From: Deltaproteobacteria bacterium
GTDB taxonomy: Bacteria; Desulfobacterota; Dissulfuribacteria; Dissulfuribacterales; QOAL01
Length of the DNA: 64,000 nt
Direction of reading: 5' to 3'
Assembly: GCA_026986785.1 (NCBI GenBank)
Contig: JALSNW010000044.1
Span: 13,520-77,519, forward strand
Below the pieces are notes generated by a model. The model saw only the letters and a list, made by a program, of their open reading frames with translations. It did no database searches and was not told the DNA's origin. Below, one piece after another: positions 22,760 through 60,672 of the stretch (its first letter is position 1; every line of letters begins with the position of its first letter). A program made the translations under genes and the position numbers.

Positions 22760-25453
22760 TTAATGAAACACAGGCGGTTCTGACAGGTCAAGCCCCAGGG
22801 CAGCCTGTTCCAGAAGTTGTTGCCTCTTCCGGATAAAGCCTTTTGATTTTTCCAAGACTGCTGGCAGATCTAGGATAAGGGCAATGGAGCCGTCTCCCAG
22901 GATGGTCGCCCCTGCAAAGCCGGGCTGATCCATCAAGTAGTCCGATAGGGGTTTTATAACCACTTCCTGCTGGCCTATGAGGGCATCCACACCCAGACAG
23001 GCATCCAACTCACCAAGTCTTACCCTGACTGCAAAGAACTTCTCAGGTTCTGCAGGGGCCCCTGTCCCCCTGAAAATCCTTCCCAGCCGAATGAGGGGGA
23101 GTGTCTCCTGGCGTTTCGATATCATCTCATAGCCCTCGACACTGCTCACATCACGAGATGTGAGGCGAAAGGTCTCATAAACAGCTGAAATGGGCACCAC
23201 CATAGACTGCCTGCCCACCTTTACTGTAAGTCCCTTTATGATCGCAAGGGTAAGAGGGATCCTCAGCATGAACCTCGTGCCTTTGTCCTTTCGGGATTGA
23301 ACCACCACTGTCCCTCCTATCTTTTCTATATTTTTCTTGACCACATCCAGACCAACACCCCTTCCAGAGATGTCCGAGACAGAACCGGCAGTAGATATGC
23401 CTGGGATGAAGACCAGATTCCATATCTGCTCCTCGTTCATTTGTCTCAGGGCATCTGGGCTGATGACCCCAGAAGAAATGGCCTTCTTTACAATCAGATC
23501 CCTATCCAGCCCTCTTCCATCGTCTGATACGGAGATAATGACGAAGTTCCCTTCCTGGCTGGCAGAAATGGAAAGTTGTCCCTTGGAGGGCTTACCCTTC
23601 GTGTTCCTCTGATCTGGGGGTTCTATACCATGGTCTATGGCATTTCGGATTATGTGCTGGAGGGGATCTGCCAACTGCTCCATCACCTGCTTATCAAGGG
23701 CTGTATCCATACCTGTGAGCTTAAGCTCCACCTCTTTACCGAGTTTCTGGCACAGGTCCCTGACCATCCTGGGATATCTGTTGAACAGAGAACTTACCGG
23801 GAGCATACGCATGCGCATGACCCCATCCTGTAATTGATGTACCACCCTTTCCAACGCAGCCACGCTCTCAGTGAAATCAAGGAGCACGTTCTTCAGGGGC
23901 CTCAATTCCTGGACAGGCATCCGCCTCTTGTCCCTCCACCTGGAATACAACCCCTTCAACAAGATGGTGGATTGGGCCATGGATGATCTCAAAACTACGA
24001 GCTCTGCCACATCTTCCAAGAGATTTTCTACCTTTTCGAGATTCACCCTGACCAATTGACCCTGGTTACCTCTCGTATCCGAAGCTCCAGCAAAGCCCTT
24101 TAGGGGACTCAATTCTTTGCCGAATTCCTTGCCAAAATCATTCTCTTTATCAAGAGGTAGACCGTCTTGACCCATTCCCTCTATGGGAGCTGGCTGGGAA
24201 GCCTTGTCCTGGTGCCTCTGCTCGGCTACAGGCTCTCCATCTTCGAATATGGTATCTATAGCTGCATCGAAATCATCCAGCGACTCTATCCCAAAGGGCG
24301 AATCCGCTTCTTTCTGTCCAGATGCATCGATGTCCTGGAGACCATCCACGTGTTCCATCTCCGGGGTTTCAAACATCTCTTTCAGATGTGGCAGCCTGTC
24401 GCACAATCTCTCCCATAGGCCAATAAAAACCTCCCTGTCAAAATGGGATTCCCCGCTCAATTGTTCTGTTATGCACTCTTCCCATTCCTCGAGCAGATGC
24501 ACGACGTCCATATAGTCCATGTAGTTGGCAGAGGTCTTTAACTTGTCCACAGCCTCTTCACACTCTGAAATCCATTTCTCGTCCATATCCGCAGGAGGAT
24601 TGGCCAAAGGTGCCCCTACCTCTTTGAAAAAATCGAGAAAGATATGGTAGAGCTCTTTATCCTCCTCGGCCTCCACACCAGTGCCACCCAGATAATCGTC
24701 TGGCACCACATCATCCAGCTCTATCTCCTTGCTGAGGGCATCCCTGAGCTTAGAGCGCATCGCCCTTATGAATTCATCAGATCCATCTCCTTGGAAAGAT
24801 TCCCAAAGCCCTTGCCTGATATCACTTATGGCACTACGGAGCTTCTCCTTTCCTATGTAATTGGCCACACGCTCCATGTCCTGAAGCAGGATGTCCAGTG
24901 TACCTTGATCAGCATCTTGATCTTCGATGACCTTGACCAATTGTCCGTAAAGGCTTCTCATCTCCTGGGCAAAGATATTCAAAAGCTCCAGGTCTTCATC
25001 GGATTCTTCTGGCCCAGGATCTCCTTCTGGCCTTTGCTCGAAAACAGCACCGGCGGCCAAGGCTGTCTCTCCACCTACAGTGTTCTTCAACTGTTCAAGA
25101 AGGTCTTCGACATCCAGAGTCTCTTCGTGATTCTGTGCCACGTCCTCAAGTAGTTCCTTGAACCTGTCCACACACCTGAATATCGCATCAAATGCCTGCT
25201 GGTCCAGCCTGCGGCTGCCTTGACGGGCCTCGTCGAATAGGTTCTCGATAGCGTGGGCAAGAGCTGCTATTCTGCTCAAACCCATATAGTTGGCAGCCCC
25301 TTTTATACTGTGCATGTTCCTGAAACAATCATTTAAGATGGAGGAATCATCGGGCTGCTGTTCCAGCAGCAACAAGTTTGGCTCGAATTCCTGGAGGTTT
25401 TCTTCCACCTCCACAATAAAATCCTGCCACATTTCCTGATCAAAATCCTTCAT
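22760..25453 (-). CDS. cheA: Chemotaxis-type histidine kinase CheA with extra degenerate Hpt repeats
   Basis: FRNMHSIKG Hpt; RMLPV...YPRMVRD; HIIRNAIDHG, DDGRG, SGRGVGLDVV; C-terminal CheW-like domain. Confidence 0.95.
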   Translation of the reverse strand: MKDFDQEMWQDFIVEVEENLQEFEPNLLLLEQQPDDSSILNDCFRNMHSIKGAANYMGLSRIAALAHAIENLFDEARQGSRRLDQQAFDAIFRCVDRFKELLEDVAQNHEETLDVEDLLEQLKNTVGGETALAAGAVFEQRPEGDPGPEESDEDLELLNIFAQEMRSLYGQLVKVIEDQDADQGTLDILLQDMERVANYIGKEKLRSAISDIRQGLWESFQGDGSDEFIRAMRSKLRDALSKEIELDDVVPDDYLGGTGVEAEEDKELYHIFLDFFKEVGAPLANPPADMDEKWISECEEAVDKLKTSANYMDYMDVVHLLEEWEECITEQLSGESHFDREVFIGLWERLCDRLPHLKEMFETPEMEHVDGLQDIDASGQKEADSPFGIESLDDFDAAIDTIFEDGEPVAEQRHQDKASQPAPIEGMGQDGLPLDKENDFGKEFGKELSPLKGFAGASDTRGNQGQLVRVNLEKVENLLEDVAELVVLRSSMAQSTILLKGLYSRWRDKRRMPVQELRPLKNVLLDFTESVAALERVVHQLQDGVMRMRMLPVSSLFNRYPRMVRDLCQKLGKEVELKLTGMDTALDKQVMEQLADPLQHIIRNAIDHGIEPPDQRNTKGKPSKGQLSISASQEGNFVIISVSDDGRGLDRDLIVKKAISSGVISPDALRQMNEEQIWNLVFIPGISTAGSVSDISGRGVGLDVVKKNIEKIGGTVVVQSRKDKGTRFMLRIPLTLAIIKGLTVKVGRQSMVVPISAVYETFRLTSRDVSSVEGYEMISKRQETLPLIRLGRIFRGTGAPAEPEKFFAVRVRLGELDACLGVDALIGQQEVVIKPLSDYLMDQPGFAGATILGDGSIALILDLPAVLEKSKGFIRKRQQLLEQAALGLDLSEPPVFH

Positions 25454-25468
25454 GACACATACCTCTTG

Positions 25469-25828
25469 TTAGCGCTTGCCAAGCCCATCCATGATGTGGC
25501 TCAATCTTTCAGAATCGTCCTTTCCAAGGAAATCAATGGCCCCCAACTCGTTGGCCATAGAAATAACCTCTGGATCAGTAATCAGGCTCATGAAGAGAAT
25601 CCGCGCCTCTGGATCGACCTCCCGGATCATACCAGCAGCCTGGATACCATCCACACCTCTCATGGTAACATCCATAATCACCAGATCTGGGCGAAGCTTC
25701 TTGTAAAGGTCAAAACCTTCTGCACCATCCCTTGCAGTGCCTATCACATCGTGCCCAGCTTGTCTGACTATGTTGCCAATCCTCTTTCTCATGAAGCTGG
25801 AATCATCAATAATTAAGACAGTAGCCAT
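25469..25828 (-). CDS. cheY: Single-domain response regulator CheY
   Basis: IIDD, IMDVTM, FMS, GK; lies directly upstream of cheA. Confidence 0.85.
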   Translation of the reverse strand: MATVLIIDDSSFMRKRIGNIVRQAGHDVIGTARDGAEGFDLYKKLRPDLVIMDVTMRGVDGIQAAGMIREVDPEARILFMSLITDPEVISMANELGAIDFLGKDDSERLSHIMDGLGKR

Positions 25829-25846
25829 TTTATACCTTGCTATTTA

Positions 25847-27268
25847 TTATTTCTTGCCAAGAAGAGGGACTATCTCTTCTGATGGTGCAATCTGCACATC
25901 TAACCCAAGGGCCTTAATCATCTTCAATGGCTCGGGATAGAGACATGTGTCCGGGTCCTGGAGTATTATGGCCCCTGCCTTGGATGCCACGCTCTCGAGA
26001 CCCTGCACCATAGCCAGATCTATCCCGGACAGGAGAACCACGGTGAGATCCTTTTCAAAGATGGAGGCTAGTCCATGAAGAAAAAGATCAGGCTCCAAGC
26101 TGTCCAGCGACATGTCTCTATAAATACCTGCTCCGGTTTCATCGGCCTCTACCTTCCATCCCTTGTCGAGCCCAGATATCCAGGCCTGGTTACTGAGAAG
26201 TGGCGCACCTGTCTCCAAGGCCTTTACGGAAAAGGAACAGTAGCTGTCCATATAATTGGCCAGAGAAGCGGAAAAATATTGGCACATCTGCTGAAACACG
26301 ATAAGGCTTGTGGACTCCCCAAGTTGGAGCTCTGGCAAGATCTTCTGGATCTCGAGCAGACCTCCAAACCCCCCCATGATTACGATCAACCTATCGGCCG
26401 GCATACCTGGCAGAGCCTTTTCCCCTGCCATCTTGGGATTTCTGGCCCGCCTGATGTTTCTTATCTGGAATTCTGTGGCGGTCTTGATAGCATTCCCAAG
26501 CCGCTTTTCAAAAAGGTCCCAGGAATCACCTGCACCTGGTTTTGATACAAAATCCACTGCACCAAGACGTAGATATTCCATGATCTTTGCCGTGTGCTTC
26601 TCATTGAAATTACTCACCAGAAGCACTGGTGCTGGAGATCGGATCATGATGTGCTTGAGGGCTATATCCCCGGCCATGACTGGCATATTTATATCCAGGG
26701 TAATAATATCTGGCCTAGTATCGTCCAAAAACTCCAGGGCCTCCTTACCGTTTCGCGCCTCTGCTATAACCTTGGCAGAGAGGTTCTCCGTCAATACATC
26801 ACGCAGCCTGGAGATAAAAAATCTGGAGTCGTCTACAACCAGTACACCGGGCACCTGTTCGACATCGGTGTCCGAGGCGGAACCCATCTCATCCTTTCTC
26901 CTAAGAGACTCTATCAAAAGAAAATTCCACGGCACTTCAATGGTATGTTCTGGGGGTGATTCGGGAAAGAAGCGAAAGGTGCCTTGATGGAGGCACATGA
27001 TCTCATAAAAGGCCTCCTCTCCTTTCTTGTCCATTATCTGTGCGTGGACCACCTCGCCGGAAGAAAAGAATATCTCTCCCCTTGCCCCTCTGGTCTGTAC
27101 CAACAGTTTCCGATCCCTGTTCTCAAGACAGGCAAGCTGTACCAAATCGGATAGGTTTATATCCACCATGAAACCACTGAAACCCGTCTCAGTACCAGTG
27201 TTTGTATCCGAAACGTTTGTTTGTATCAGTTCCTGTGAATCAAGGTCGAGAACAGTCATACCTTCCAC
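25847..27268 (-). CDS. DUF4388(PATAN-like)-REC-pseudo-CheB fusion
   Basis: GFSG..LSDLVQL..GEIFF..GEVVHA..GEEAFYEI DUF4388 pattern; intact REC (VVDD, LDINMP, KP); CheB-like C-terminus without catalytic triad. Confidence 0.8.
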   Translation of the reverse strand: MEGMTVLDLDSQELIQTNVSDTNTGTETGFSGFMVDINLSDLVQLACLENRDRKLLVQTRGARGEIFFSSGEVVHAQIMDKKGEEAFYEIMCLHQGTFRFFPESPPEHTIEVPWNFLLIESLRRKDEMGSASDTDVEQVPGVLVVDDSRFFISRLRDVLTENLSAKVIAEARNGKEALEFLDDTRPDIITLDINMPVMAGDIALKHIMIRSPAPVLLVSNFNEKHTAKIMEYLRLGAVDFVSKPGAGDSWDLFEKRLGNAIKTATEFQIRNIRRARNPKMAGEKALPGMPADRLIVIMGGFGGLLEIQKILPELQLGESTSLIVFQQMCQYFSASLANYMDSYCSFSVKALETGAPLLSNQAWISGLDKGWKVEADETGAGIYRDMSLDSLEPDLFLHGLASIFEKDLTVVLLSGIDLAMVQGLESVASKAGAIILQDPDTCLYPEPLKMIKALGLDVQIAPSEEIVPLLGKK

Positions 27269-28341
27269 TTGCTAAGCCTGCCAGCAATCTCGGCAGAGCC
27301 ACTACTTTCTGCATTAAACTTGTCCATGATATGAAGGGGCAAAAATGGGGCAAGGCAACTGGACGGGTTCTGAACGAGGAGTGTGCCTCCTCCTCTGAGC
27401 ACCTCTTTTGCTCCGGTCATGCCATGGCTGTTGTCACCAGAGACAAAAACAGCGAGACAATCCCTTCCAAATGCCTCACTGGCAGAAAGGAGGATGAGAT
27501 CGATTGCCCCTTCATTGTCTGCCTTTATCGGCCTTTGTCTTACCAGCATGTCCCACTCGGCCCCATCCTTTTCAAAGGTGCCGGTCTGGTCACTGGCAAG
27601 AAAATATACACTTCCTGGCATGAGGCGCACCTGCTTCTCTGGCACAACCAAGGGGACGGCGGCAAAGGGACGCAGATAATCTACAAAGGCATTGAGATTT
27701 TCCTTGGAGGTACCCAGAGACACGACCACGGGGATATCCATGGCCCCTGAAAGATGGGGAACTATGGAGAGAATAGACGAATACCCGCCAGTAGAGCCAT
27801 GAATTACGGCAAGTGCCTTAACGTTCTCGCCGGATCTCTCCTTGTTTTCGGTCTGCATCGATCTTCTAACCGGCCTGATGCGTAGGTAACGGGCGGCCTC
27901 CACCTGGACCCTGGAGGCCCGCTTCAGCCTGGAACATAAAAGCTCGGCCTGGCTCTTTAGCTCCTCGTCTCCGTTTCTCGTTGGCTTTTTGAAAAAATCC
28001 ACGGCCCCGAATCTGAGGGCCTCAAAGGTCACCCTGGAACCGTCTCCTGTAAATGCACTTACCATGAGAGTGGGAATAGGATACCTGACCATGATATTCT
28101 TCAACACAGTCAGGCCATTCATCCCTGGCATGTGCACGTCCAGGGTACAGACATCAAAGCCACCTGCCGAAAGCTTGTTTAAGGCCTCTTGGCCATTCAA
28201 GGCCCTTGATTGAACCTGAATCTGATCGTCTTCTCCTAATATCTGTTCCAGGGCCTTACACATCATTGGGGAATCGTCAACGATAAGGACCTTGATCTTT
28301 CCGTCAATACCCTTGCTTGCTGTCAACATCTCTTGCGCCAT
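27256..28341 (-). CDS. CheB-like protein (REC + degenerate methylesterase)
   Basis: IVDD, LDVHMP, FFKKP; GSTGG kept but His and Asp motifs lost; start uncertain (ORF opens at 28389). Confidence 0.8.
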   Translation of the reverse strand: MAQEMLTASKGIDGKIKVLIVDDSPMMCKALEQILGEDDQIQVQSRALNGQEALNKLSAGGFDVCTLDVHMPGMNGLTVLKNIMVRYPIPTLMVSAFTGDGSRVTFEALRFGAVDFFKKPTRNGDEELKSQAELLCSRLKRASRVQVEAARYLRIRPVRRSMQTENKERSGENVKALAVIHGSTGGYSSILSIVPHLSGAMDIPVVVSLGTSKENLNAFVDYLRPFAAVPLVVPEKQVRLMPGSVYFLASDQTGTFEKDGAEWDMLVRQRPIKADNEGAIDLILLSASEAFGRDCLAVFVSGDNSHGMTGAKEVLRGGGTLLVQNPSSCLAPFLPLHIMDKFNAESSGSAEIAGRLSKWKV

Positions 28342-28405
28342 ATCTGACCATCCACTGTTTTTCTCATCTTGCAAACAAAGCAAAACCATCTATCATAGCC
28401 ATCCT

Positions 28406-29476
28406 TCAGGCCTTGAACCCTTTTCTGAGGGCCAATTGTCTTGAAAAGGCCTTTAGACTATTCCAAAGGGCCTGTTCCGTATCGAAAGGCCTTGCCAGCT
28501 CCAGTTCTATAGCCTTCTTTGCGAGCCCGCCTGATGCACACTTGTCTGGAGCCAAGGCATAGACCCTGCCGCCCCTGTCAACTACTGATGCAAGACCGTA
28601 AAATTCATCCCCGGGCTGACCCCCCAATATGCAGATATTCAGGTCTTCTCCAAAGATCTCGGCAGTTTTATGCAGGAAGGTCTCCAGGCCCATAACACCC
28701 TCACCACACTCAAGATAGACCTCCCCGGCCTCATCCATCCTCATCTCAGGCAATCCATACTTTCCAACCAAGCTGCAACACCCACTATAGAGACGCTGTG
28801 CCGTTACGAAGGCCTCTGCACAACCAGTTATGGCATCGAGCTCTCTGGCATAGGCACGTAAAACAGCCCTTGACATGTCCTGGATACAAATACAGGCGGT
28901 ATGTTTCAAAGGAAAGAGCGCAGAGGCGAGACGAATGAAACTGCTTACAGCCCCTTGAAGGGCAACCACCACGAGTAGCCCCGAGGGCGCATGTTTGTCT
29001 CGATCCTTGATATGAACAGGGCGTGGATTTGTCTTGACCGCCCTCTTGATGGCCCTGGGATTTATGCCTGCTGCCACCTTCAATGTCCTTACCAGGTCTG
29101 CGCCACTGTCATGGATGTCATCCGAGACGGTTCCAGAAGGCTTTGGGAAAAAATCCACGGCTCCGAGACTGAGGGCCTCAAAGGTGATCTTGCCCTGATC
29201 AGCCAGGCCGCTCACCATGACCACAGGCAAAGGATCTCTTATCATGATATGTTTTATGGTGGTTAGCCCATCCATTATGGGCATGTCCACATCGAGGGTT
29301 ATCACATCGGGACGCAATGTCTTTATGGCATCCAAGGCCTCTTTCCCATGCTTGGCCACTCCCACTACCTCTATATCGCCCGAGTCCGACAAGATCTCTA
29401 CCAGGGCCTTTCTCATGAAGGCAGCGTCGTCTACTACCATGGCCTTTATGCTTCTACCGATGTTTTCTGCCTGCAT
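28406..29476 (-). CDS. CheB-like protein (REC + highly degenerate methylesterase)
   Basis: VVDD, PDVITLDVDMP, GAVDFFPKP; ALQGA and QDM replace ASTGG and QHM. Confidence 0.8.
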   Translation of the reverse strand: MQAENIGRSIKAMVVDDAAFMRKALVEILSDSGDIEVVGVAKHGKEALDAIKTLRPDVITLDVDMPIMDGLTTIKHIMIRDPLPVVMVSGLADQGKITFEALSLGAVDFFPKPSGTVSDDIHDSGADLVRTLKVAAGINPRAIKRAVKTNPRPVHIKDRDKHAPSGLLVVVALQGAVSSFIRLASALFPLKHTACICIQDMSRAVLRAYARELDAITGCAEAFVTAQRLYSGCCSLVGKYGLPEMRMDEAGEVYLECGEGVMGLETFLHKTAEIFGEDLNICILGGQPGDEFYGLASVVDRGGRVYALAPDKCASGGLAKKAIELELARPFDTEQALWNSLKAFSRQLALRKGFKA

Positions 29477-29477
29477 A

Positions 29478-30329
29478 TCAGCCTCCCAGGGCCTTTGACC
29501 AGCCCTCCTCGAGGTGTTTTTTCTTGTCCCGTATCTTCTTTGCTATTGCCTGCACTTGTGGGCCTTTTAGACCCAAGGCCTTTGGGAGTTTTATCTTGTC
29601 CGCAAGCCAATTGGAGCTCCAACCAATCCCCAACTTGTGACAAAGTTGATCGGCAAGAAATACCACGGCGCAAGCCTTCTCTTCAGGGCCAGCACTCCTT
29701 GGTCGATGGTGATAGCGTACAGCACTAATCATCCTCTCATTCAGATTCCATTTTGTGGCTATGTAGGCCCCTGCCTCTGTGTGACTGAATCCATATTCTT
29801 CTTCCGCCATGTAGAGGGGTATCTGCCTTTCCTCTTGGAGCTTCAATATCCTTTTGAGGTCCTCAGGGAAAAAGGAACACATCAAGAATCTTCCAATATC
29901 GTGGATTAGCCCCATGGTGAAACACTCCTCTGGCTCCATGTCACCCAAGAGGGTGGCTATCTCCATGGATACTGTTGCCACGCCTATACAGTGCAACCAC
30001 ATTTCCCTGGCAGGGAATTCTTTAAGGTCTGCGTTCTGGCCAAATGCCTGGGTCAGGGAGATCCCTATCACCAGATTGCGTACCTCTTCGAACCCCAGTA
30101 CCACTACAGCATGGGAGATGGTCTGAACCTGTCCACTCATGCCATAGGCTGGAGAATTTGCAACCTTCAATATCTTGGTAGCAAGTACCGGATCCTGCCT
30201 TACAATCACCTCGAGGCGCTTTGCCGAGGATGCAATACTGTCCATTTCCTCCAATACCTTTTGTAAGGTATTGGGCATTGGAGGTAAATCCTTTATCTTG
30301 TCCAGACGTTGTGCTATGGATGGAGGCAT
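29478..30329 (-). CDS. HDOD domain protein
   Basis: LPPMP, DPVLATKILKVANS, WLHC, GLIHDIG, HTEAG, W.L...VRYHH. Confidence 0.93.
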   Translation of the reverse strand: MPPSIAQRLDKIKDLPPMPNTLQKVLEEMDSIASSAKRLEVIVRQDPVLATKILKVANSPAYGMSGQVQTISHAVVVLGFEEVRNLVIGISLTQAFGQNADLKEFPAREMWLHCIGVATVSMEIATLLGDMEPEECFTMGLIHDIGRFLMCSFFPEDLKRILKLQEERQIPLYMAEEEYGFSHTEAGAYIATKWNLNERMISAVRYHHRPRSAGPEEKACAVVFLADQLCHKLGIGWSSNWLADKIKLPKALGLKGPQVQAIAKKIRDKKKHLEEGWSKALGG

Positions 30330-30540: not shown

Positions 30541-30942
30541 ATGGCAGACATTATCTTGACTGGTCCTGCGCTCGAACAAGCGAGAACTCAGATTGATGAG
30601 GCCCTCGTACAGGCAGGAGTCCATACGGTCTTATTGATAGATCACGCAGGAAACGTAGTTGCCAGTTGTGGTCAAAACAGAAAGGACCTGGACATGACAT
30701 CCCTTGCCGCCTTGGCCGCTGCAAATTTTGGTGCTACATCGCAAATGGCCAAGCTTATTGGCGAAGACGACTTTTCTCTGCTGTTTCACAAGGGGAAGAG
30801 AGACAGCATCCACTTTGCAAAAGTGGGGCAGGAGATGATTCTCATAACCATTTTTGGCGATGAGGTCTCCCTCGGACTCGTAAGATTAAGGGTGGCAGAA
30901 TTGACGAACAACATAGAAAAGATATTTGGACTGGGTAAATAA
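30541..30942 (+). CDS. mglB: Roadblock/LC7 protein MglB (GAP)
   Basis: LLIDHAG, SLAALAAANFGAT..MAKLIGE..F..LFH.G, SLGLVRLR; adjacent to mglA. Confidence 0.92.
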   Translation: MADIILTGPALEQARTQIDEALVQAGVHTVLLIDHAGNVVASCGQNRKDLDMTSLAALAAANFGATSQMAKLIGEDDFSLLFHKGKRDSIHFAKVGQEMILITIFGDEVSLGLVRLRVAELTNNIEKIFGLGK

Positions 30943-31560
30943 ATGGCACTGATAGACCTCAGCAAAAGGGAGGTGCACTGCAAGATCGTCTATTATGGAC
31001 CAGGGCGGTGCGGCAAGACAACCAATCTCCTCTACATATATAATTCTATGAACAGTAATGCCAAGGGCAAGATGCTCACCATCGAGACCAAGGGAGATAG
31101 AACCCTCTTCTTTGACCTCCTTCCCCTGAACCTTGGAAAGATAAAAGGCTTTGACATCAGGATCCAGCTATATACCGTGCCTGGACAGGCAATCTATGAG
31201 GCTACCAGGAAGCTCGTCCTCAAAGGGGTCGATGGTCTTGTTTTCGTAGCGGATTCTCTGCGCGTGAGAAGATCCAAGAACATAGAGAGCCTGGAAGACC
31301 TGAAGAAAAACCTCCGGGATTACAATTTAGATATTAATAACATCCCTCTCGTTCTCCAATACAACAAAAGAGACCTTGCCAATTCCCCCATACCCACCTT
31401 GAGCGTGGAAGAGCTGGAAACAGACCTGAATAGGGAACTTGGTGTGGAAGCGTTCCAGGCAGCCGCTACCAAAGGACTGGGGGTTTTCGAAACCCTTAAG
31501 GATATCAGTAAGAAAACCGTGCGCTATGTAGCCACGAAACACCTTGTAAAACCAAAATAG
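30943..31560 (+). CDS. mglA: Small Ras-like GTPase MglA
   Basis: CKIVYYGPGRCGKTTNL, DRTLFFD, LYTVPGQ, GVDGLVFVADS, QYNKRDL. Confidence 0.96.
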   Translation: MALIDLSKREVHCKIVYYGPGRCGKTTNLLYIYNSMNSNAKGKMLTIETKGDRTLFFDLLPLNLGKIKGFDIRIQLYTVPGQAIYEATRKLVLKGVDGLVFVADSLRVRRSKNIESLEDLKKNLRDYNLDINNIPLVLQYNKRDLANSPIPTLSVEELETDLNRELGVEAFQAAATKGLGVFETLKDISKKTVRYVATKHLVKPK

Positions 31561-31580: not shown

Positions 31581-33197
31581 GTGAAAGAAAACAACTCCAT
31601 CCCTGAACCAGAAATCTTTACCTCGGAAATAGAAGATACCATAGACGACCTCTTCAAACCCTCCAAAAAAATAGAGATCGATCCTCTGACCCAGGAGATT
31701 AAAGAGGTTGCAAAAGAGGCAGACGATTCTCCTGTGGAATTTGAACTTGCCCAAGAAGGAGATGAAATAAAACCAGAAGAGCCAACAGCCCTCTTGCTTG
31801 AAGATCAAGAACCCCAGGACAACCAAGAGGAAGAGGAGGCCTTGCTCGAACTGGAACTCGAGGTGGAAGAGGAGGCAGAAGAGATAGCTGTAGAGATGGA
31901 GCCGACACCTGAAGACACTGACCAGGGAAATAGGGTAGGGGAGATACTTCAGGAGCTGAAACAGCAGATCTTTACCATCGAATGGGAGGTGACAGAGCCC
32001 CAGATAGACCAGACCCTTGCCTTGGTAGCAGGACTCCTTGGCGCCCCAGAAATCAGGAATCAGGCCCCGGCACGTTCCCTGGTAGAACTCATGCAAAAGG
32101 TCCTCCAACACATCCAATACAGACCTGAAAAGGTCTCTGCCACTGCTCCATCGGTACTCAAAAAAGCCGTAGCCTTTCTTTTGGATTGCCATTCAGGCAA
32201 AAGTGTATCCGATGACAGGGCAGAGGGCATAGCCCAGGAACTAAAGGCCCTGTTTGACAAGGCCCAGCAAAAGGAGGAGGCCACTGTCCTGGAGAACTTT
32301 CTCCTCTTGGGCGAGAAAACAGGAGAAGACCAGGGGGCTGAAAAGGCAGAAACCACCTCCGAGATGCAGGGAGATGGTGCACCAGCCCTGGGTCCTGCTT
32401 CAACCGAAACAGAGACAACCACGGAGACAACGGGCAGTCATACCAGCAAAGAGGATCTACTCCCGGGAGAAGCCAAAAGGATCCTGCAGGCCCATCTTGT
32501 AGAGATAAAAAGATGTATAAACCGCATCGAACCCTTGGAAAAGCTCCTGGCCAAGACCCCTGGAATGGAAAAACTCCACAGTTTTCAGCATGACATACGC
32601 CAGAGACTGGAAAGGCAGCTTGAGGAACTTTCCAACCACTTCTTCGAGGCTATGGAGTTGGAACTACCTGAACCACCTCGCACCAAAACCGATTCTGAGG
32701 AATATGCCAGGGACATGAACCTTACTCCATGCCCGTGGGCCGAGCTTTTCACCATCACTTTGGATGGCATGGAGATAGGTTTTCCTGCAGACGAAATAGC
32801 CTATGTCTCAAGCCCTCCTTGGCATTCAAAGTCAGCAATCAAGAAGGCCCATAGCCTGGAGTTAAATAAACTAAAGAGCTGGCCATGGTCAAAACTCAAG
32901 GGAATGTTCAGGGGCAAACTTGCCGACTTTGACGAATCCAGCCTTTCTTCCATGAGCTTTCCTATAATCCGTCATATTGGAGGCCAGGAGCTACCTGTTC
33001 CCTCCAATTTCACAATAATACTCTTATTCAATGGACAGACAGGTGTAGCCCTTTTGACAGGTGAAAAACCAATAAGGATAAAGATCCCCAAGGATGCAAA
33101 ATGGACGAAGGAACAAGCAGATGGCCTTGAAGCTGAAATAACCACCCATGGCAATGTCATCAAAGTGGCCTCGGCCAACTCATTGAAGCAGGAGTAG
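31581..33197 (+). CDS. Acidic hypothetical protein with possible degenerate CheW-like C-terminal domain
   Basis: Glu-rich low-complexity linkers, helical blocks; C-terminal LFTITLDGMEIGFPADEIAYV...FPII reminiscent of CheW strands (inference). Confidence 0.7.
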   Translation: MKENNSIPEPEIFTSEIEDTIDDLFKPSKKIEIDPLTQEIKEVAKEADDSPVEFELAQEGDEIKPEEPTALLLEDQEPQDNQEEEEALLELELEVEEEAEEIAVEMEPTPEDTDQGNRVGEILQELKQQIFTIEWEVTEPQIDQTLALVAGLLGAPEIRNQAPARSLVELMQKVLQHIQYRPEKVSATAPSVLKKAVAFLLDCHSGKSVSDDRAEGIAQELKALFDKAQQKEEATVLENFLLLGEKTGEDQGAEKAETTSEMQGDGAPALGPASTETETTTETTGSHTSKEDLLPGEAKRILQAHLVEIKRCINRIEPLEKLLAKTPGMEKLHSFQHDIRQRLERQLEELSNHFFEAMELELPEPPRTKTDSEEYARDMNLTPCPWAELFTITLDGMEIGFPADEIAYVSSPPWHSKSAIKKAHSLELNKLKSWPWSKLKGMFRGKLADFDESSLSSMSFPIIRHIGGQELPVPSNFTIILLFNGQTGVALLTGEKPIRIKIPKDAKWTKEQADGLEAEITTHGNVIKVASANSLKQE

Positions 33198-33201
33198 AGA
33201 T

Positions 33202-35583
33202 ATGGCTGGCTTCCAGATACAGACTGAAGATTTGGCAGGCACCGATCCTGTGAGCCATGCAGAGCTGGTTGAGAGAAAGATTCAGGAAGCAGATCTATAC
33301 CTAAATCATGGCCTCATAGAAGAGGCCAGGGCGATATTGGAAGAGATACTGGCAGTACTTCCAGATGACACCGACGAGAAACTCAAAATTCTTCTGGAAG
33401 ACAAGCTGAAAGAGCTCTCAAAGAGGGATGCCCTGGCTGTAGAAAACAAAAAAGAGGGCCAAAAGGGCGAATTCTCCGAGCATGAAGAATTCCTGGAACA
33501 CTATAACAATTGCCTGGGCCTTATAGAGGCGGGTTTTTTCTCAGAGGCAGTAGAGGAGTTGAAACTGCTCGAGGAAAAGAATTTCCGCGCCGGCGAGATC
33601 AGGATAAAGATCGGCCAGCTTTATCTCAAGCTGGATATGCCATTCGATGCCATAGAATACCTGGAAAAAGGTCTCAAGGACCAGGAACTGCCCGATGATA
33701 TCAGATATGAGGCCCTCTATCAATTGGCCCTCACCCAGGAAAAGACAGGATCCGTAACAAAGGCAGCCTCGACCCTGGAACAGCTCGTCAAGCTGAACAA
33801 AGACTTCCGCAATGCAAAAGAAAAACTGGAGAGCCTAAGCCAGTCGGCCCAAAAATACGGTAGATTCTATTATCTCATCAGGACTGGCATCCTGGAGGAA
33901 GAACAGCTGGAGAGGGCGAAAGAACTGGCCAAACAATCGAAAAAGTCCATTGAGTCCGTATTGATCAATCAATTCGGTATAGAAAAGGATGAAATAGGGA
34001 ACTCTCTCAGCGAGTATTATAGGTGTCCTTTCATAGAATTCAACGAACTCGAGGTTGGCACCACACCCAAATGTATCTCTGGTATAAAGGAACACTTTTT
34101 CAGGACCACTGCTTGTGCCCCAATCAAGGAAGAAGCTGGCATGCTCCTCATAGCCTTGGATAACCCCCATGATCTCAGCAAGATCGACAATATCCAGAGG
34201 GTACTGAAGGCCAAAAGCTTTGAATACGCAGTGGCCCTCAGAGAAGATATAGATAAATTCATAGACTATTTTTATGGCAAATACAGCGTTGGTGGTGATG
34301 CTGAAGACGTATTCGAACAACTGGAGCTGATAGAAGAGGAAGAAGAGGAAATCGAAGAAGACGACAGCCTGGCATCTGATGCGGATAGCGTCGTCGTCCA
34401 GATGGCAAACCGGATAATTGAAGATGCATATACCAGGGGCGCCTCCGATATCCATATAGAAAGTCTCACGGGCAAGAGAGGGGCCTTGGTGAGATACCGC
34501 ATCGATGGCGACTGCTTGAGATATCAGAATATTCCATTGAATTATAAAAAGGCCTTGGTCTCCAGGATCAAGATCATGGCCAGCCTGGATATCGCGGAAA
34601 AAAGGCTACCCCAGGATGGAAAGATCAAATTCAGGACCAGGACAGGCCGTGTCATTGAACTGCGTGTGGCCACTCTCCCCACCACGGAAAACAACGAGGA
34701 TGTCGTCTTGAGGATACTGGCATCGTCTGAGGCCATGCCCATCGACCGCATCGGCCTCTTGGAAGACAACCTCAAAAACCTGAAAAAACTGATAGAGATG
34801 CCCTACGGATTGATACTGGTTGTCGGGCCAACGGGCTCTGGTAAGACTACGACCCTACATGCTGCCCTTGGCCATATCAACAGGCCGGAAAAGAAGATTT
34901 GGACAGCTGAAGACCCTGTTGAAATCGTACAGGATGGCCTGAGACAGGTACAGATAAAATCGAGCATTGGCCTGACCTTTGCAAGGGTACTTAGGGCCTT
35001 TTTGAGGGCAGATCCTGATGTAATAATGGTTGGAGAAACAAGGGATGAAGAAACGGCGAACACCGTGATAGAGGCCTCACTCACCGGTCATCTGGTCTTC
35101 TCTACCCTTCATACCAATTCGGCCCCCGAGACAGTAACCAGGCTCCTTGGCATGGGAATGGATCCGTTCAATTTTGCAGATGCACTCCTTGGCGTCCTGG
35201 CCCAGCGTCTGGTCAAGAGATTGTGTCCCAAGTGCAAAGAGGCCTATGAACCAAACCAAGAAGAAAAGGAACGCATATTATACGAATACGGGGAGCATCC
35301 AAACAAGCCCATCTCCCTGGAAGACCTGGATGGCATCACCCTTTACAGACCAAGAGGCTGTGGTTTCTGCAACAAAACGGGCTATAAGGGCAGGATGGCA
35401 ATTCACGAACTTCTGGTATCGGATGATGGCCTGAGAAAGCTCATCCAGAGCAAAAGCCCGGTGATGGAGATAAGAGACCACGGCCTTAAAAATGGAATGC
35501 GTACCCTCAAACAGGATGGAATACACAAGGTGCTCATGGGTGATACAGACATGAAGCAGATCCTTGCAGCCTGCATCAGATAG
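33202..35583 (+). CDS. PilB/GspE-family secretion ATPase with N-terminal TPR repeats
   Basis: TPR region aa ~25-215; ASDIHIE, EKRLPQDG, GPTGSGKTT, EDPVE, MVGETRD, TGHLVFSTLH, CPKC/CGFC zinc site. Confidence 0.93.
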   Translation: MAGFQIQTEDLAGTDPVSHAELVERKIQEADLYLNHGLIEEARAILEEILAVLPDDTDEKLKILLEDKLKELSKRDALAVENKKEGQKGEFSEHEEFLEHYNNCLGLIEAGFFSEAVEELKLLEEKNFRAGEIRIKIGQLYLKLDMPFDAIEYLEKGLKDQELPDDIRYEALYQLALTQEKTGSVTKAASTLEQLVKLNKDFRNAKEKLESLSQSAQKYGRFYYLIRTGILEEEQLERAKELAKQSKKSIESVLINQFGIEKDEIGNSLSEYYRCPFIEFNELEVGTTPKCISGIKEHFFRTTACAPIKEEAGMLLIALDNPHDLSKIDNIQRVLKAKSFEYAVALREDIDKFIDYFYGKYSVGGDAEDVFEQLELIEEEEEEIEEDDSLASDADSVVVQMANRIIEDAYTRGASDIHIESLTGKRGALVRYRIDGDCLRYQNIPLNYKKALVSRIKIMASLDIAEKRLPQDGKIKFRTRTGRVIELRVATLPTTENNEDVVLRILASSEAMPIDRIGLLEDNLKNLKKLIEMPYGLILVVGPTGSGKTTTLHAALGHINRPEKKIWTAEDPVEIVQDGLRQVQIKSSIGLTFARVLRAFLRADPDVIMVGETRDEETANTVIEASLTGHLVFSTLHTNSAPETVTRLLGMGMDPFNFADALLGVLAQRLVKRLCPKCKEAYEPNQEEKERILYEYGEHPNKPISLEDLDGITLYRPRGCGFCNKTGYKGRMAIHELLVSDDGLRKLIQSKSPVMEIRDHGLKNGMRTLKQDGIHKVLMGDTDMKQILAACIR

Positions 35584-42915: not shown

Positions 42916-43950
42916 ATGGAAAAGGATATCATCAACCAAAGGAAGGCAGTTTTTCGACCAATAGAACTCGCCATCAAAAATCGTCGTTTGGCTGGTAAGC
43001 GTCACGATTTTTTCAAGGAGACATTCCCTGCACGCAAGGCATATTCAGAGGAGCTCAAACGCGATCTGGACGAAATCATGCATGCCATAATAGAGGAAGA
43101 CTCCATGAAAAATGTACTTTCTCTTTTGGGCACGAAATATGCTATAGAGCGCACCTTGCTGGCTGAAGAACGAAACATCATGGCAGAGGAACGGAATCTG
43201 CTCGGAGAAAAACGCTCCCACAGATCCCAGGTCAGGACAGAGCTTGCAGAAAAGAGAAGTGGCCTTTCCCGCATCCGCACGCTTCTTGCCAGACAGAGGA
43301 CCTTCTTGGCGGAAAAGCGCACCACCATGTCCCAGCAACGAACGTCTCTGGCAAAGGCCCGTACCGAATTAGCCTTTATCAGAACAGGGGTTGCCATGAT
43401 TGCCCTTGGCAGTGCCCTGGCCAGGTATTTTGGTATCGGCTGGTGGTCCATAATGGATGGCAGCATAATGCTGCTCGGTATAGTCATGGTGGGACTTGGT
43501 ATCTATTTCTATCTGCCAACGAGGAAGGAAGAAGAGCGCCTAATCGATATCATGAGGCAGAAAGAGGAAGAGCTCATGCGTCGCAAGCCCCACATATTGA
43601 TAATCGACGATGATCTGGCATCCTGTAACATGCTAAAGATATATCTGAAAAAATCTGGATATGACGTGGATGCATTCACAAGTCCACATGTAGCCAAGCA
43701 AAAACTCGAGGCCAGCCAATATGATGTGGTCATCACAGACATGATGATGGAAGGGATGACCGGGACAGAGATATTACGACTTGTCAAAAGAATCTCACCC
43801 CAGACTCAAGTGATAATGATCACCCAGATGGGAGAGCAGTTTATAGAGGATGTCAAAGACGAACTCTTTGCTTATTTTTCAAAACCTGTCGATGTCAAGA
43901 AGTTAGAGACCACTGTCAAAAAGGCCATAGAAGAACGAATTTTGGTTTAG
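42916..43950 (+). CDS. DUF202-type heptad-repeat membrane protein fused to a C-terminal receiver domain
   Basis: Twelve xR(T/S/N) heptads ending ..ARTELAFIRTG, two TM helices, REC (IIDDD, ITDMMM, IT, SKP). Confidence 0.8.
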   Translation: MEKDIINQRKAVFRPIELAIKNRRLAGKRHDFFKETFPARKAYSEELKRDLDEIMHAIIEEDSMKNVLSLLGTKYAIERTLLAEERNIMAEERNLLGEKRSHRSQVRTELAEKRSGLSRIRTLLARQRTFLAEKRTTMSQQRTSLAKARTELAFIRTGVAMIALGSALARYFGIGWWSIMDGSIMLLGIVMVGLGIYFYLPTRKEEERLIDIMRQKEEELMRRKPHILIIDDDLASCNMLKIYLKKSGYDVDAFTSPHVAKQKLEASQYDVVITDMMMEGMTGTEILRLVKRISPQTQVIMITQMGEQFIEDVKDELFAYFSKPVDVKKLETTVKKAIEERILV

Positions 43951-47193: not shown

Positions 47194-49695
47194 CTATCGA
47201 ACCTCCATTTTTGATTTCTCCGACTCAGTGATCCTTTGGAGTCTTTCTACCATATCCTTGAAGCGTATCCTACCCCCAGGATTCATGTTAATCACATTCA
47301 CGCCTCCCAGGAAGCCTCTTTCCACCAGGTATTCCTTCCCCCCTTTTTTTATCAGTCCATGTAGCACAAAGACATCGTTTTGGAGGCTGCAAGAGATCCC
47401 TATTCGTTTGTAGGAAAATTTTTTGAAGAAATAGCCGAGAAAAGACACAGAGCCCTGGCCACCACCCAAGATGGACAGATTTTCCACCGCCTTGATACTA
47501 ATCTTTTGGGGCACATGAGCCGAGTCGTCATTCTCGATGACAAGGCGAAATCTCTCAGGCTGGATGCCGCTCATTACAAGGCCCTTTATCCATCCCTTGA
47601 CCACCCCAGAGACCACGCCAAAGGCCGTTGGGGCCGTGATCATCTCGAGATCAAGATGATCAAAACTGATGTCTGCACCATAACGGACGATCGGGGCGAA
47701 TGGCTCGAGCCAGATATGCGTGGCAGTAATGGTGCCCCCGGCCAACTTTGCCTTTATCTGTCCAGAAAAAACCAGTTTACCCTGCCTGAACTCTGCAGAA
47801 ATGCCCTTGGCTTCAACCTTCATCTCATAGGGGAAGTCCCTGAAAAGACGCTTGATGTCGAGATCTTTTATACAGACACCCTCCAATGCCCCCTTTTTGC
47901 TCCTCAGTTCCATCCGTATCCGATGTACACATACCTGTCCATGTTGTAGATCTAGCTCCAAGGGGCCGGCAGAGATGAGGTCCTGACAGATCTCCATTGG
48001 TACGAGGCTATTTTTGATCTCGACCTTGACACCTTCTCTCAACAGAGAAGAAGGCAAGAGGTTGTTCAAATAAAATGCCTGCCAGGAGATAGTGCCACTT
48101 TCACAGCTCTTGGTCTTGAAGGGATAGGGAAGCCGGATATGCAACCCCTTGAGTAGAGTGGCATTGGAAAAGTTTACATCACAAAGACAGTCCAAGCGCA
48201 ATACCTTGCCCATGGTACTTACACTGATGGAACCAGCAGGCTCAAATCTTGAAAGAGCCGGATGGGAATCGGAAAAAGGCTCCTTCAATAATAGATCATA
48301 CAGCTTTTCCAGGTCTCCAGAGGCCTCTAAGCTGGAGATGGAGATACGTTTCAAGATATTGCCCATCGAATGCATTGCCCCAGGGGGCAAAAGGATCTCT
48401 TTCCCTTTCAACATGAAAGGACCTTGGAGCTTTATATTCGAGACAAAGATCCCATGTCTTGAAAATCTGCCCCCTGCTGCCAAGGCCCCTTTCAAGGCCG
48501 AAAGGTCAAAAAACCAGGGATAGATCAAGACCTGCCCCCGATCCCAACTTACCTCTGCCCTCCAGGCAACCTTCTCTTTTCTGGAGATATCTCCAGCCAA
48601 GGCCAAATGGATTTTTAGATCCAGCCCCTCGAATGCATGATCCGAGTCCCTGGAGCCGGAAAGATCCCTTAGCTGCAGATCGGAAACAAGTTTCCACCTC
48701 TTGTTCCGAGGCTCATATCCAAACTCGACCCTGGTATTGGAATGATCCCCTCCTTCTGGCAAGAAGGTGATATCCATCCTCGAAAGATCTGGTGAACTGT
48801 TGAATGTATATGCAAGTGCCTTATCCAGCTCCAGTTTCACAGGAAGGTTTCTTTGAATTATACCGAAAGGCAAACAGAGCCTGCCCCTTGCTTCAATGCC
48901 CTTTTCAAGAGAGAAAAGGGCCTTGCCATCAATGGAAATCGAGCCCTTTAAACGAAACCCTTGGATCTCAGAAATGGCCTCTATATTGGGAATATTCAGG
49001 GAAAAGCCCCCTCTCAATCGTGCTAAACTGTCTGGAAAGGGAAGGTGTAGTCTCAAGTTCATGGGAACGGGCCTATCAAGCCCCTCTGCCTGGACAAGAC
49101 CTTCTATCTCCACGTTGGCATCAGCGCTGACAAAATCCAAGGATGCCGAAAGGTTTCCTTGCAGGTGCGAGTCCTCCACATTGGCCTGAAATGATGCCGA
49201 AAGGAGAGAGGAATCGTATTTTCCATTCCGGACAGAGGGTAATAGGGTTAAGCCTTGTAGATCGAGCCTTGCCTTTTGGGAAACATAGTGAATCTCTGAG
49301 TTGGTTATCTTCACATACCTCAAGAGCCCATATTGAGCATGGGAAAAATGACCAGGTTTCTCATCCCTTCTGTCTCCTGGCAAGACCCATGTCTCCATGT
49401 CATTGATCTCGATAGCCTGAAGGAAAGGAGGATGAATGCCCATACTGATCCTAAGCCTGGGAATGACCAATTTCAGGCTGTCGTTCTGAAACCTGATCCG
49501 CTCCACGAGCAGGTCCCCCCTTTTCAGGACCAAAAACCTGGAAAATTCCAGATCCCCGTCCTGCCAGTGGAGGTGCACCGGGGTCGTAATCCCCCCACAG
49601 AGAAAAAGGAACAAGCCAAGACCCAACCCAGCCAGTAGAGAGAGGCTGACACATATGACCAAAAGGTATCTTTTCAGGGGCTTTTTTCCTTCCAT
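47194..49695 (-). CDS. YdbH/AsmA-like envelope-spanning protein
   Basis: N-terminal TM anchor, long beta-rich body, C-terminal LAGG.I...DLEMIT...G.V.G...VNVI..N pattern; abuts the ydbL-like gene. Confidence 0.65.
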   Translation of the reverse strand: MEGKKPLKRYLLVICVSLSLLAGLGLGLFLFLCGGITTPVHLHWQDGDLEFSRFLVLKRGDLLVERIRFQNDSLKLVIPRLRISMGIHPPFLQAIEINDMETWVLPGDRRDEKPGHFSHAQYGLLRYVKITNSEIHYVSQKARLDLQGLTLLPSVRNGKYDSSLLSASFQANVEDSHLQGNLSASLDFVSADANVEIEGLVQAEGLDRPVPMNLRLHLPFPDSLARLRGGFSLNIPNIEAISEIQGFRLKGSISIDGKALFSLEKGIEARGRLCLPFGIIQRNLPVKLELDKALAYTFNSSPDLSRMDITFLPEGGDHSNTRVEFGYEPRNKRWKLVSDLQLRDLSGSRDSDHAFEGLDLKIHLALAGDISRKEKVAWRAEVSWDRGQVLIYPWFFDLSALKGALAAGGRFSRHGIFVSNIKLQGPFMLKGKEILLPPGAMHSMGNILKRISISSLEASGDLEKLYDLLLKEPFSDSHPALSRFEPAGSISVSTMGKVLRLDCLCDVNFSNATLLKGLHIRLPYPFKTKSCESGTISWQAFYLNNLLPSSLLREGVKVEIKNSLVPMEICQDLISAGPLELDLQHGQVCVHRIRMELRSKKGALEGVCIKDLDIKRLFRDFPYEMKVEAKGISAEFRQGKLVFSGQIKAKLAGGTITATHIWLEPFAPIVRYGADISFDHLDLEMITAPTAFGVVSGVVKGWIKGLVMSGIQPERFRLVIENDDSAHVPQKISIKAVENLSILGGGQGSVSFLGYFFKKFSYKRIGISCSLQNDVFVLHGLIKKGGKEYLVERGFLGGVNVINMNPGGRIRFKDMVERLQRITESEKSKMEVR

Positions 49696-50993
49696 CTTTC
49701 TGGAAAGACGAGGGTAACCGTGGTTCCCATACCCGGCCTACTTTTTATCTCTATCTCTCCTTGATGCTCTTTCATAATATGATGGACCATAATGAGACCT
49801 ACGCCTGTCCCAGATGGTTTGGTGGTCACCAACTCCTTAAATAGTTTTTCTTGGATCTGTGAAGGTATGCCAGGGCCCTGATCCCTTATGACAATCACGG
49901 GCCTGCCGTCTCTGCGCTTGAGCTCTATCTCAATGGTGGAAGCATGTGGCGCAGCATCGAGGGCATTTTTGAGCACATGGAGGACAGCCACCCTCAATAT
50001 CCTGGGATCAGCATGTATCTTCAAGGGTGTCTCAGAAATGTGGGTTATCAACCTGAGATCCTTTTGCTCGAGATGAGGTTGCCAGGCATCGAGGATCTCA
50101 CCGACCAGGTCTCTCAAGTCCAATTCTACAAAGAATCTTTCCTGCTCCCTGGCAAGACCTTCGAAATCCTTGACTATGGCTTCAAGCTTTCGGGCTTCTT
50201 CGAATATGGCCTCGAGCTTTGAGCGTTCAGGAAAGTCTTTGGGGATCTTCTTCAATACAATCCTCGCAAGGCCCCCTATCACCGTTGCAGGATTTCTTAT
50301 CTTGTCTGCTATTCTCAAGGCAAGCTCCACCACAGTCCTCTCATGGACCAGGGATTCCATGTCCTGGCTCAAATCGAGCAGCTCAGCGTTTACCTTGTCT
50401 AGCTCCATGTTCTTTTTGGAAAGGGTACGAAGCAACTTCAAGACCTCTTCATGCTTGGCCCTCAGATTCTCAAGAAAGGATTCTTCAAGATCGGCAAAGA
50501 GTTGTTTCTTGATGTCCTCATATTTTTTTTGGAGTTTGTCGCAGCTTTCCTCCCCCCCCCACATGACAGCACTCACAGTGAAGGGTTTGCCTGGAGAGCA
50601 TAGCTCGAAATCAAGATGGTCCATAACCATATCAAGTGCTTTGAGAAGCCTGGAAGAGGAATCTCTGGCAGCCTCGGTGGCCTTGGTGTTGTCAGGGGAT
50701 ATACAACTTCTTTTCCCCATGAAATCCAACTCCATACCAGACACAGAGGGGCCATGATCAGCAACCTCCTTCTTACACACAATATAGAAGTGTGCCTTGC
50801 CTCCCCGGGTATTATGTAGGAGAAAACGGGCCAATTCAGAGGCGGCAAGGGCTATCCGAACCCTTTTCATCTGGGAAAAACCACAGAGCTCTGCAAGGAT
50901 CTTTGCCTTGGATCGAACGAGGGGGATGTCCTTCTCCCTCTTTATCACCAAGGTGACTATATGGATGTGTAGATCTATTCTTGCCATTTCCAC
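49674..50993 (-). CDS. RsbT-like N-terminal domain + histidine-kinase-like protein lacking the phospho-His
   Basis: IALAASELAR RsbT-like start; H-box reads IADKIRNP; N, G1, G2 boxes present (LKNALDA, DQGPGI, TTKPSGTGVGL). Confidence 0.85.
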   Translation of the reverse strand: MEMARIDLHIHIVTLVIKREKDIPLVRSKAKILAELCGFSQMKRVRIALAASELARFLLHNTRGGKAHFYIVCKKEVADHGPSVSGMELDFMGKRSCISPDNTKATEAARDSSSRLLKALDMVMDHLDFELCSPGKPFTVSAVMWGGEESCDKLQKKYEDIKKQLFADLEESFLENLRAKHEEVLKLLRTLSKKNMELDKVNAELLDLSQDMESLVHERTVVELALRIADKIRNPATVIGGLARIVLKKIPKDFPERSKLEAIFEEARKLEAIVKDFEGLAREQERFFVELDLRDLVGEILDAWQPHLEQKDLRLITHISETPLKIHADPRILRVAVLHVLKNALDAAPHASTIEIELKRRDGRPVIVIRDQGPGIPSQIQEKLFKELVTTKPSGTGVGLIMVHHIMKEHQGEIEIKSRPGMGTTVTLVFPERWKEKSP

Positions 50994-59058: not shown

Positions 59059-59073
59059 ACACACGGACCCCTT

Positions 59074-60621: not shown

Positions 60622-60672
60622 ATAATAGATCCAGAAAAAACCTCTTTTAAAGATGAAAACCCCTTCATATTA

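Follow-up and report, generated by a model that had tools for sequence, protein, structure and literature searches.

The window analysed here (the whole 64,000-nucleotide stretch of contig JALSNW010000044.1) carries a gene that encodes TPR repeats and a motor of the PilB/GspE family in one polypeptide, close to genes for MglA, a small GTPase, and for the MglB that partners it. The locus raises the question of whether the effector of a Ras-like GTPase and a pilus motor have here become one protein. The answer we lean towards is that an SgmX-derived head joined to a PilB/GspE-family ATPase forms a likely extension motor, predicted to be recruited or switched directly by MglA-GTP.

The gene, its domains and its operon

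The gene (33202..35583, plus strand) is a single ORF of 793 codons. Both Pfam and the motifs confirm the original prediction that TPR repeats, a degenerate MshEN segment and an intact ATPase share one chain. That prediction also had about 200 aa of continuous TPR repeats, which the structure model (mean pLDDT 75) breaks up: a first TPR-like hairpin (aa 16-52; 33247..33357, plus strand) is followed by a helix and a low-confidence linker, then by a TPR triad (aa ~93-214 in the model, delimited here as aa 94-215; 33481..33846, plus strand), the MshEN region and the ATPase. Pfam TPR matches fall at aa 28-57 and 135-201. The hairpin may be the counterpart of SgmX TPR11; several SgmX-like proteins have a similar repeat ahead of their C-terminal triad.

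Further along the same strand, the MshEN region comprises a degenerate N-terminal bundle (aa 221-273; 33862..34020), in which both (R/K/L)LG starts are gone, and a C-terminal subdomain (PF05157, aa 273-359; 34018..34278). The T2SSE core (aa 394-788; 34381..35565; Pfam E 3e-120) contains Walker A (542-549), the Asp box EDPVE (570-574), Walker B (606-615), the His box (629-637) and four Zn cysteines (675-723), and these motifs and cysteines are invariant or nearly so across 53 relatives. The core is 42-44% identical to canonical PilB (Geobacter 5TSH, 5ZFR), with a like fold and like catalytic motifs. A Foldseek search with the full model returned solely ATPase structures among the matches listed. 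By sequence criteria the protein is a T2SSE traffic ATPase, for which ATP hydrolysis and hexamer formation are predicted.

Upstream on the same strand lie mglB (30541..30942; a Roadblock-domain GAP-like protein, NF052242 66.5 bits, under the cut-off of 200), mglA (30943..31560; a Ras-like GTPase) and an unannotated gene for 538 aa (31581..33197), so that the order mglB-mglA-538-aa gene-ATPase has intergenic gaps of 0, 20 and 4 bases. Co-transcription is read from this spacing, since a promoter and terminator scan gave results at chance level. The ATPase gene had been placed directly downstream of mglA; in fact a 1,641-bp gap separates it from the end of mglA (31560), and the 538-aa ORF occupies that gap. 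The coupling of a Roadblock gene with a small GTPase gene that has both the catalytic Gln and the intrinsic Arg identifies an MglA/MglB module. R53, which by its numbering we take to be the intrinsic Arg of MglA, and Q82 are invariant in 29 aligned copies. The catalytic Gln of M. xanthus MglA is likewise described as Q82.

For the 538-aa protein no Pfam or NCBIfam match was found, while 302 relatives were retrieved at E <=0.001. Its model consists of an Hpt/P1-like bundle (110-229), a helical hairpin (295-358) and a CheW/P5-like domain (382-536). It superimposes on CheA P1 (Z 14.1, rmsd 4.0, 118 aligned) and on CheA P5/CheW (Z 10.0, rmsd 2.6, 121 aligned); helical bundles easily reach such Z values, and the CheA reading therefore draws on the order of the parts. 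In the Atlas, the C-terminus gave leads to CheW with scores under 0.9. The Pfam scan found no HATPase (P4 kinase) domain, and the P1-like bundle has no conserved His (no position between aa 138 and 157 shows His in more than 9 of 33 rows). The protein is predicted from its model to be a CheA-like scaffold without a kinase domain, rather than a CheA kinase.

A divergent block on the minus strand (22760..30329) encodes an HDOD protein, three CheB-like proteins (one with DUF4388), CheY and CheA, without receptor, CheR or CheW. Its CheA retains the His, and each CheB-like protein, aligned with the genome's intact CheB, lacks the full Ser-His-Asp set. Signals may pass from this block to MglA.

Origin of the TPR head and its linkage to mglA

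Sixteen SgmX-like candidates were fetched from the matches to the head and were chosen partly for closeness to pilM. SgmX (NF052243) was the top family in all 11 that were scanned whole (99-353 bits, cut-off 1800). In 15 TPR proteins, a profile of the head scores the C-terminal triad at 41-84 bits and the other repeats at 27 or less. An alignment of 14 C-terminal triads from SgmX-like proteins (profile A4), all of which match NF052243, the first of them at model positions 830-1009, aligned with the head in hhalign at 99.6% (E 4e-24) over 124 ungapped columns, compared with 97.1% (E 7e-11) for N-terminal SgmX repeats as a control; this match is favoured by the SgmX-like set having been hand-picked from matches to the head. 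Reciprocally, A4 ranked the head best of the 10,725 ORFs in the source genome (71.6 bits vs 33.4 for the next), and the head was absent from the top 12 of the N-terminal control profile in the same genome. All 53 family members reach at least 31.5 bits with A4, with a median of 59.8 against 9.0 for the control.

Direct matches of the heads to NF052243 (E <=0.01) are few: 3 of 29 full heads, that of the 793-aa ATPase not among them. They lie at positions 893-1006, 899-1011 and 763-796, the last being a weak match (E 0.007) of one close relative, and generic TPR families often outscore NF052243 on the heads. With about four repeats, the head is far from a whole SgmX (14 TPRs, cut-off 1800). Searched by sequence against the PDB, the head matched consensus TPR proteins but no structure of SgmX, and its Atlas neighbours are unnamed TPR clusters. 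In 20 genomes with a TPR-headed ATPase outside the class, A4 found the head best in 8 and another protein best in 7; in 5 the head was not among the matches listed.

The weak direct matches and the consensus-TPR neighbours are what one would expect if the head were a generic TPR array, its likeness to SgmX merely general TPR likeness, and the MglA-linked ATPase of independent origin. This reading appears very unlikely to us, given a reciprocal score more than twice that of the next TPR protein in the same genome, the head's place outside the top 12 of the control profile, the long alignment without gaps, and an operon slot that is common to free SgmX-like genes. For example, two loci (L188 and L195), both in genomes with canonical PilB, run from a pilM operon through two-component genes, mglB and mglA to a gene weakly homologous to the 538-aa one and finally a free SgmX-like gene; the fused ATPase gene occupies the slot of the latter. 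At a further locus (L203) this slot is filled by a kinase that carries the head seen on the ATPase. Through the intermediate profile, the head can be traced as a likely homologue of the three most C-terminal TPRs in SgmX, and derivation from SgmX is in our view highly probable.

M. xanthus SgmX has 1,060 aa, a frameshift after G802 removes TPR12-14, and TPR12-14 alone binds MglA-GTP, not MglA-GDP, in vitro (PMC7668184). We consider it somewhat probable that MglA-GTP directly binds the triad of the 793-aa ATPase. A complex prediction of MglA, GTP and Mg against aa 15-272 scored 0.01, compared with a mark of 0.32, with controls not folded, and bears on binding in neither direction.

Used as a query, aa 1-365 gave a listing of 141 proteins, with a match in 65 of the 69 class genomes and in 50 of the 51 that are of good quality. 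The names of the relatives point to the order Dissulfuribacterales. Forty class loci were selected manually, with an eye to covering the families and to the length of the contigs. In 39 of them a homologue of the 538-aa gene is the immediate upstream gene; mglB was found in 34, and the full Che block is linked in 25. Outside the class, 401 genomes of the phylum were sampled for full-length matches and 20 loci were fetched. One of these (L107/L203) turned out to be a TPR-kinase and was removed from the ATPase counts, leaving 19.

The possibility raised with the original prediction, that the architecture occurs mostly without mglBA, is not borne out, because the head travels with mglA. The mglA gene precedes the ATPase gene on its strand in 37 of the 40 class loci (1.3-2.9 kb upstream) and in 17 of the 19 outside loci (within 9.4 kb upstream), although related genomes are not independent, so that locus and genome counts here and below overstate the number of events. 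Of the three class exceptions, two are contigs that end first; at the third (L042) the ATPase gene stands apart from mglA, which that genome does carry elsewhere. It could be argued that the linkage reflects a gene order passed on by descent, with no functional coupling behind it: the class is a single lineage, and L042, L106 and the mglA-less genome G137 break the linkage. We find this hardly credible, because outside the class the linkage recurs in at least eight families, at loci of differing construction, while the flanking genes change freely.

Among the 20 outside-class genomes with a TPR-headed ATPase, 18 have mglA; it is absent from G137 and G193. G137 (100% complete) has a full-length head yet no mglA. 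In the ATPase-core tree, one family (f37) nests among the TPR proteins. Four of its genes, from 12 genomes, were read: they encode 671-695 aa with little or no match to the head. The mglA gene was not found in any of the 12 f37 genomes, several of which are closed, and no scaffold gene was found beside the ATPase at the four loci read. Head erosion thus coincides with loss of mglA in this family.

The same comparisons bear on a further reading, in which the protein is a pilus extension motor whose SgmX-derived head has come to bind a polar anchor, be it the 538-aa scaffold or another, with MglA acting only by way of that partner. The nearly constant position of the scaffold gene directly upstream, 4 bp from the ATPase start here, is consistent with it, as are the divergence of the head from SgmX and the retention of the head in G137. 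We judge it unlikely: what was retained is the MglA-GTP-binding part of SgmX, at two loci (L109 and L110) mglA abuts the ATPase gene with no scaffold between, and in f37 the erosion of the head goes with the loss of mglA, though there the scaffold is missing from beside the four genes as well. Direct binding of MglA-GTP to the triad is the reading we retain.

The ATPase clade and the pilus it would serve

The 793-aa ATPase falls under the cut-offs of the named families (PilB 508/676, GspE 494/630, TfpB 410/850 bits; canonical PilB is defined by TIGR02538 with a curated cut-off of 675.65, and TfpB by NF053534). In a quick LG+G4 tree of 52 chosen ATPase cores, from which PilT was left out for its long branches, TPR-, GAF- and double-MshEN-headed ATPases form one group (SH-aLRT 100). 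This clade is apart from canonical PilB of pilB-pilT-pilC clusters (each branch SH-aLRT 100), from operon GspE and from TfpB-like proteins. The TPR proteins fall into two subgroups in an open fork, and their monophyly is not supported in this tree. The closest relatives without TPRs have about 770 aa and a head that by eye is of GAF type. By sequence, the ATPase is not a PilB orthologue and belongs to the GAF/TPR-headed clade. The PilB/GspE identity first assigned to it is accordingly right at the level of the family and too narrow below it. The proposed Rosetta-stone fusion of effector and motor is strongly, though indirectly, supported by the SgmX-like head, the SgmX slot and the linkage to mglA; the motor that was fused is not a PilB orthologue.

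The degenerate MshEN segment had also been recognised in the original prediction (the stretch at aa 221-236), and the c-di-GMP motif model NF053729 gives 21.3 bits for this protein against a cut-off of 38. Binding of c-di-GMP by MshEN needs two (R/K/L)LGxxhhxxG motifs (PMC11731258). The start pattern [RK][LIV]G is intact in 12 of 12 canonical PilB, in 0 of 40 TPR-type and in 0 of 25 GAF-type proteins, so that the 793-aa ATPase is predicted not to bind c-di-GMP. Because the GAF-headed members share this degeneracy, many of them in genomes without mglA, the motif was probably inherited in its present state and not lost when the TPR head arrived. The dead site is likely older than the head, which runs against the suggestion that GTPase input replaced c-di-GMP input.

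As originally noted, no pilC/gspF or prepilin genes are adjacent; none was found on the whole ATPase contig, and genome-wide searches place them on three other contigs (C31, C25 and C15). The source genome has pilC, pilM-Q, major and minor pilins, PilY1 and two pilT-type genes. Between this pilC and aroE, five genes away, there is neither pilB nor pilT, while aroE flanks pilB in 11 of 12 canonical pilB loci; the 793-aa ATPase gene is not in an aroE-pilB-pilT-pilC cluster. The genome's own GspE is another gene, inside the gsp operon on C25. That C25 ATPase was considered as a canonical PilB and ruled out by its place in the T2SS operon and its best score, which is for GspE.

Canonical PilB above the cut-off was found in none of 36 class genomes, compared with 245 of 401 genomes of the phylum, and pilM is present in 14 of 16 class genomes. 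Among 315 pilM-positive genomes, with seven sub-cut-off matches included in the PilB tally, PilB alone occurs in 202, PilB together with a clade member in 36, a clade member alone in 59 and neither of them in 18. A clade member is thus present in 59 of 77 pilM-positive genomes without PilB and in 36 of 238 with it. Among the 59, 45 lie outside the class, in 21 families whose genomes, as kin, are not independent. In three closed genomes (G102, G409 and G094), which have an orphan pilC, no extension-type ATPase other than the clade member is without a GspF/PilC neighbour of its own.

Free SgmX was found in none of the 36 class genomes searched (best 21 bits). Of 40 PilB genomes selected by hand, 23 have a copy of at least 88 bits with A4, four of them being sources of A4; such a copy was found in 1 of the 20 genomes with a TPR-headed ATPase, in none of 4 f37 genomes and in none of 15 other clade-only genomes. 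Because neither canonical PilB nor a separate SgmX was found in the class, the 793-aa ATPase is probably the type IVa pilus extension motor, standing in for PilB.

The protein could instead be an accessory or second motor like TfpB of Acinetobacter baylyi, with a TfpB-like orphan as the main one, or the fusion could work for a different type IV filament system, the T2SS for instance. Many class genomes, including the source genome and the closed G044, hold an orphan TfpB-like ATPase (618-630 bits against the cut-off of 850); in the source genome this gene is split over two contig ends and is distinct from the 793-aa ATPase gene. A T2SS is also present in the source genome and many of the class, and 36 genomes keep a clade member beside canonical PilB. 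Elsewhere, one pilus can be served by two motors (PMC11656802), and Geobacter sulfurreducens, with four PilB homologues, still made PilA filaments without pilB (PMC8557921). Such a role nevertheless seems improbable, with the T2SS operon containing its own GspE, the three closed genomes lacking any other orphan extension ATPase, and the gene present in nearly the whole class. We continue with the 793-aa ATPase as the probable extension motor.

Proposed mechanism and comparison with known systems

The favoured model starts from an ancestral mglB-mglA-scaffold-sgmX operon, in which the 3′ end of sgmX would have fused to a GAF-clade ATPase gene and replaced its GAF domain. Canonical pilB would then have been lost, along with the remainder of sgmX and, within it, the pilus-activating N-terminal TPRs. 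In the cell, MglB would confine MglA-GTP to one pole, and MglA-GTP would bind the triad and bring the hexamer to an orphan PilC/PilM platform, while signals to the MglA switch would come from the CheA-like scaffold and from the receptor-less Che block that is encoded divergently. Against this model, the repeats by which SgmX activates Myxococcus pili (PMC9811614) are missing from the head, and some pilM-positive genomes carry neither PilB nor a clade member (18) or carry both (36).

A broader generalisation seems to us evenly balanced between true and false: that the class and several other lineages swapped PilB and SgmX for one chimeric motor, with a Ras-like GTPase switching a pilus motor directly; that the GAF/TPR/extra-MshEN clade is an unrecognised second family of type IVa extension motors, replacing PilB in dozens of lineages; and that the head is a portable MglA-input module, found on a Ser/Thr kinase in one relative. 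Such a family would account for how pili could still be built in genomes that possess the full type IVa set yet no recognisable PilB. The order Dissulfuribacterales includes Seep-SRB2 partners of methane-oxidising archaea, in which PilY1 is conserved and expressed (PMC10553843).

We found no report of a TPR-ATPase fusion among literature listings and abstract openings. In the portion covered of a 2014 review of small GTPases in prokaryotes (PMC4316618), PilB comes up once, for SofG, and TPR never. No study of GAF-headed PilB/GspE-family ATPases was found in the literature either. These proteins, from the same phylum (loci L111-L128 except L117, and L174-L184), are in the same clade, with 48-55% identity over MshEN and ATPase and the same degenerate motif; they differ in their head and in having no mglA in the short flanks of 17 of 17 loci. 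Canonical PilB differs from the 793-aa ATPase by its separate branch, its aroE-pilB-pilT-pilC cluster and its intact MshEN motif. TfpB of A. baylyi resembles it as an orphan non-PilB ATPase able to extend type IVa pili (PMC11656802) and belongs to another clade.

The nearest known system is that of M. xanthus (PMC7668184, PMC7519303, PMC9811614, PMC11580455), which shares with the present locus the MglA/MglB pair, a triad likely homologous to the MglA-GTP-binding TPR12-14 of SgmX, a PilB-family extension ATPase as the predicted output and, in the genome, a complete type IVa pilus gene set. Unlike in M. xanthus, triad and motor are here in one chain, SgmX TPR1-10 are missing and free SgmX was not found; the motor is no PilB orthologue and is without the c-di-GMP motif, and the operon includes an unannotated CheA-like scaffold. 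For M. xanthus, the accounts covered describe as unknown the way in which SgmX conveys PilB to the pilus machine, and they report that no direct SgmX-PilB contact was detected (PMC11580455, PMC9811614). That a natural chain has the MglA-binding end without the activating repeats suggests that it can suffice to tether the motor to MglA-GTP, and the fusion offers a two-protein system for an in vitro test of tethering. One chain most likely would do here the work that MglA, SgmX and PilB do in M. xanthus, the triad-bound motor being delivered to polar PilC/PilM.

Clade members at pilus loci and in genomes lacking canonical PilB

The PilB/GspE-family ATPases with GAF, TPR or extra MshEN heads form a clade separate from canonical PilB. 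In one genome (G341), a clade member with an additional MshEN motif that looks intact (L177:15283-18715) lies directly upstream of pilM, with the canonical pilB 13 kb away, and this adjacency to pilM ties the clade to a pilus locus. Across the phylum sample of 401 genomes, a clade member is also present in many pilM-positive genomes without canonical PilB, and it is GAF-headed wherever its sequence was read. For those PilB-less genomes mglA is mostly absent (for example, it is present in 1 of 7 in family f63, 0 of 3 in f72 and 0 of 4 in f52). The GAF-headed clade members found there may be sensor-gated extension motors.

The genome of the window also encodes a TfpB-like ATPase, whose gene appears to be divided between two contig ends (C31, 93860-95200, and C13, 50034-50604). 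Its unsplit orthologues score 618-630 bits on the TfpB model NF053534 (cut-off 850 bits).

The TPR head on a Ser/Thr kinase

The N-terminal TPR head of the window ATPase is also carried by a Ser/Thr kinase in another genome (L203:8355-10508, G200). The gene is preceded by mglB, mglA and a homologue of the CheA-like scaffold, and the protein matches the SgmX model (NF052243) at positions 899-1016. Separately, short SgmX-like genes were seen immediately 5′ of long MglA-containing ORFs, 441-483 aa (L200:779-3371 and L201:3741-6256).

Che block and other genes of the window

Three consecutive CheB-like genes (25847-29476) belong to a Che block that includes neither a receptor gene nor cheR or cheW, and each of the three proteins lacks the full catalytic Ser-His-Asp set. 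A second che cluster of the same genome, on contig C7, has an intact CheB.

By eye, a membrane protein (42916-43950) combines a receiver domain with repeated ERT/ART-like segments, and repeats of similar appearance follow an MshEN-like region in L130:5180-8022. At 57676-63117, an adjacent pair of P-loop GTPase-like genes is followed by a gene for a putative 814-aa P-loop ATPase. Finally, the putative kinase, kinase/phosphatase-like and PAS-STAS-like genes at 49674-53734 resemble a partner-switching set.
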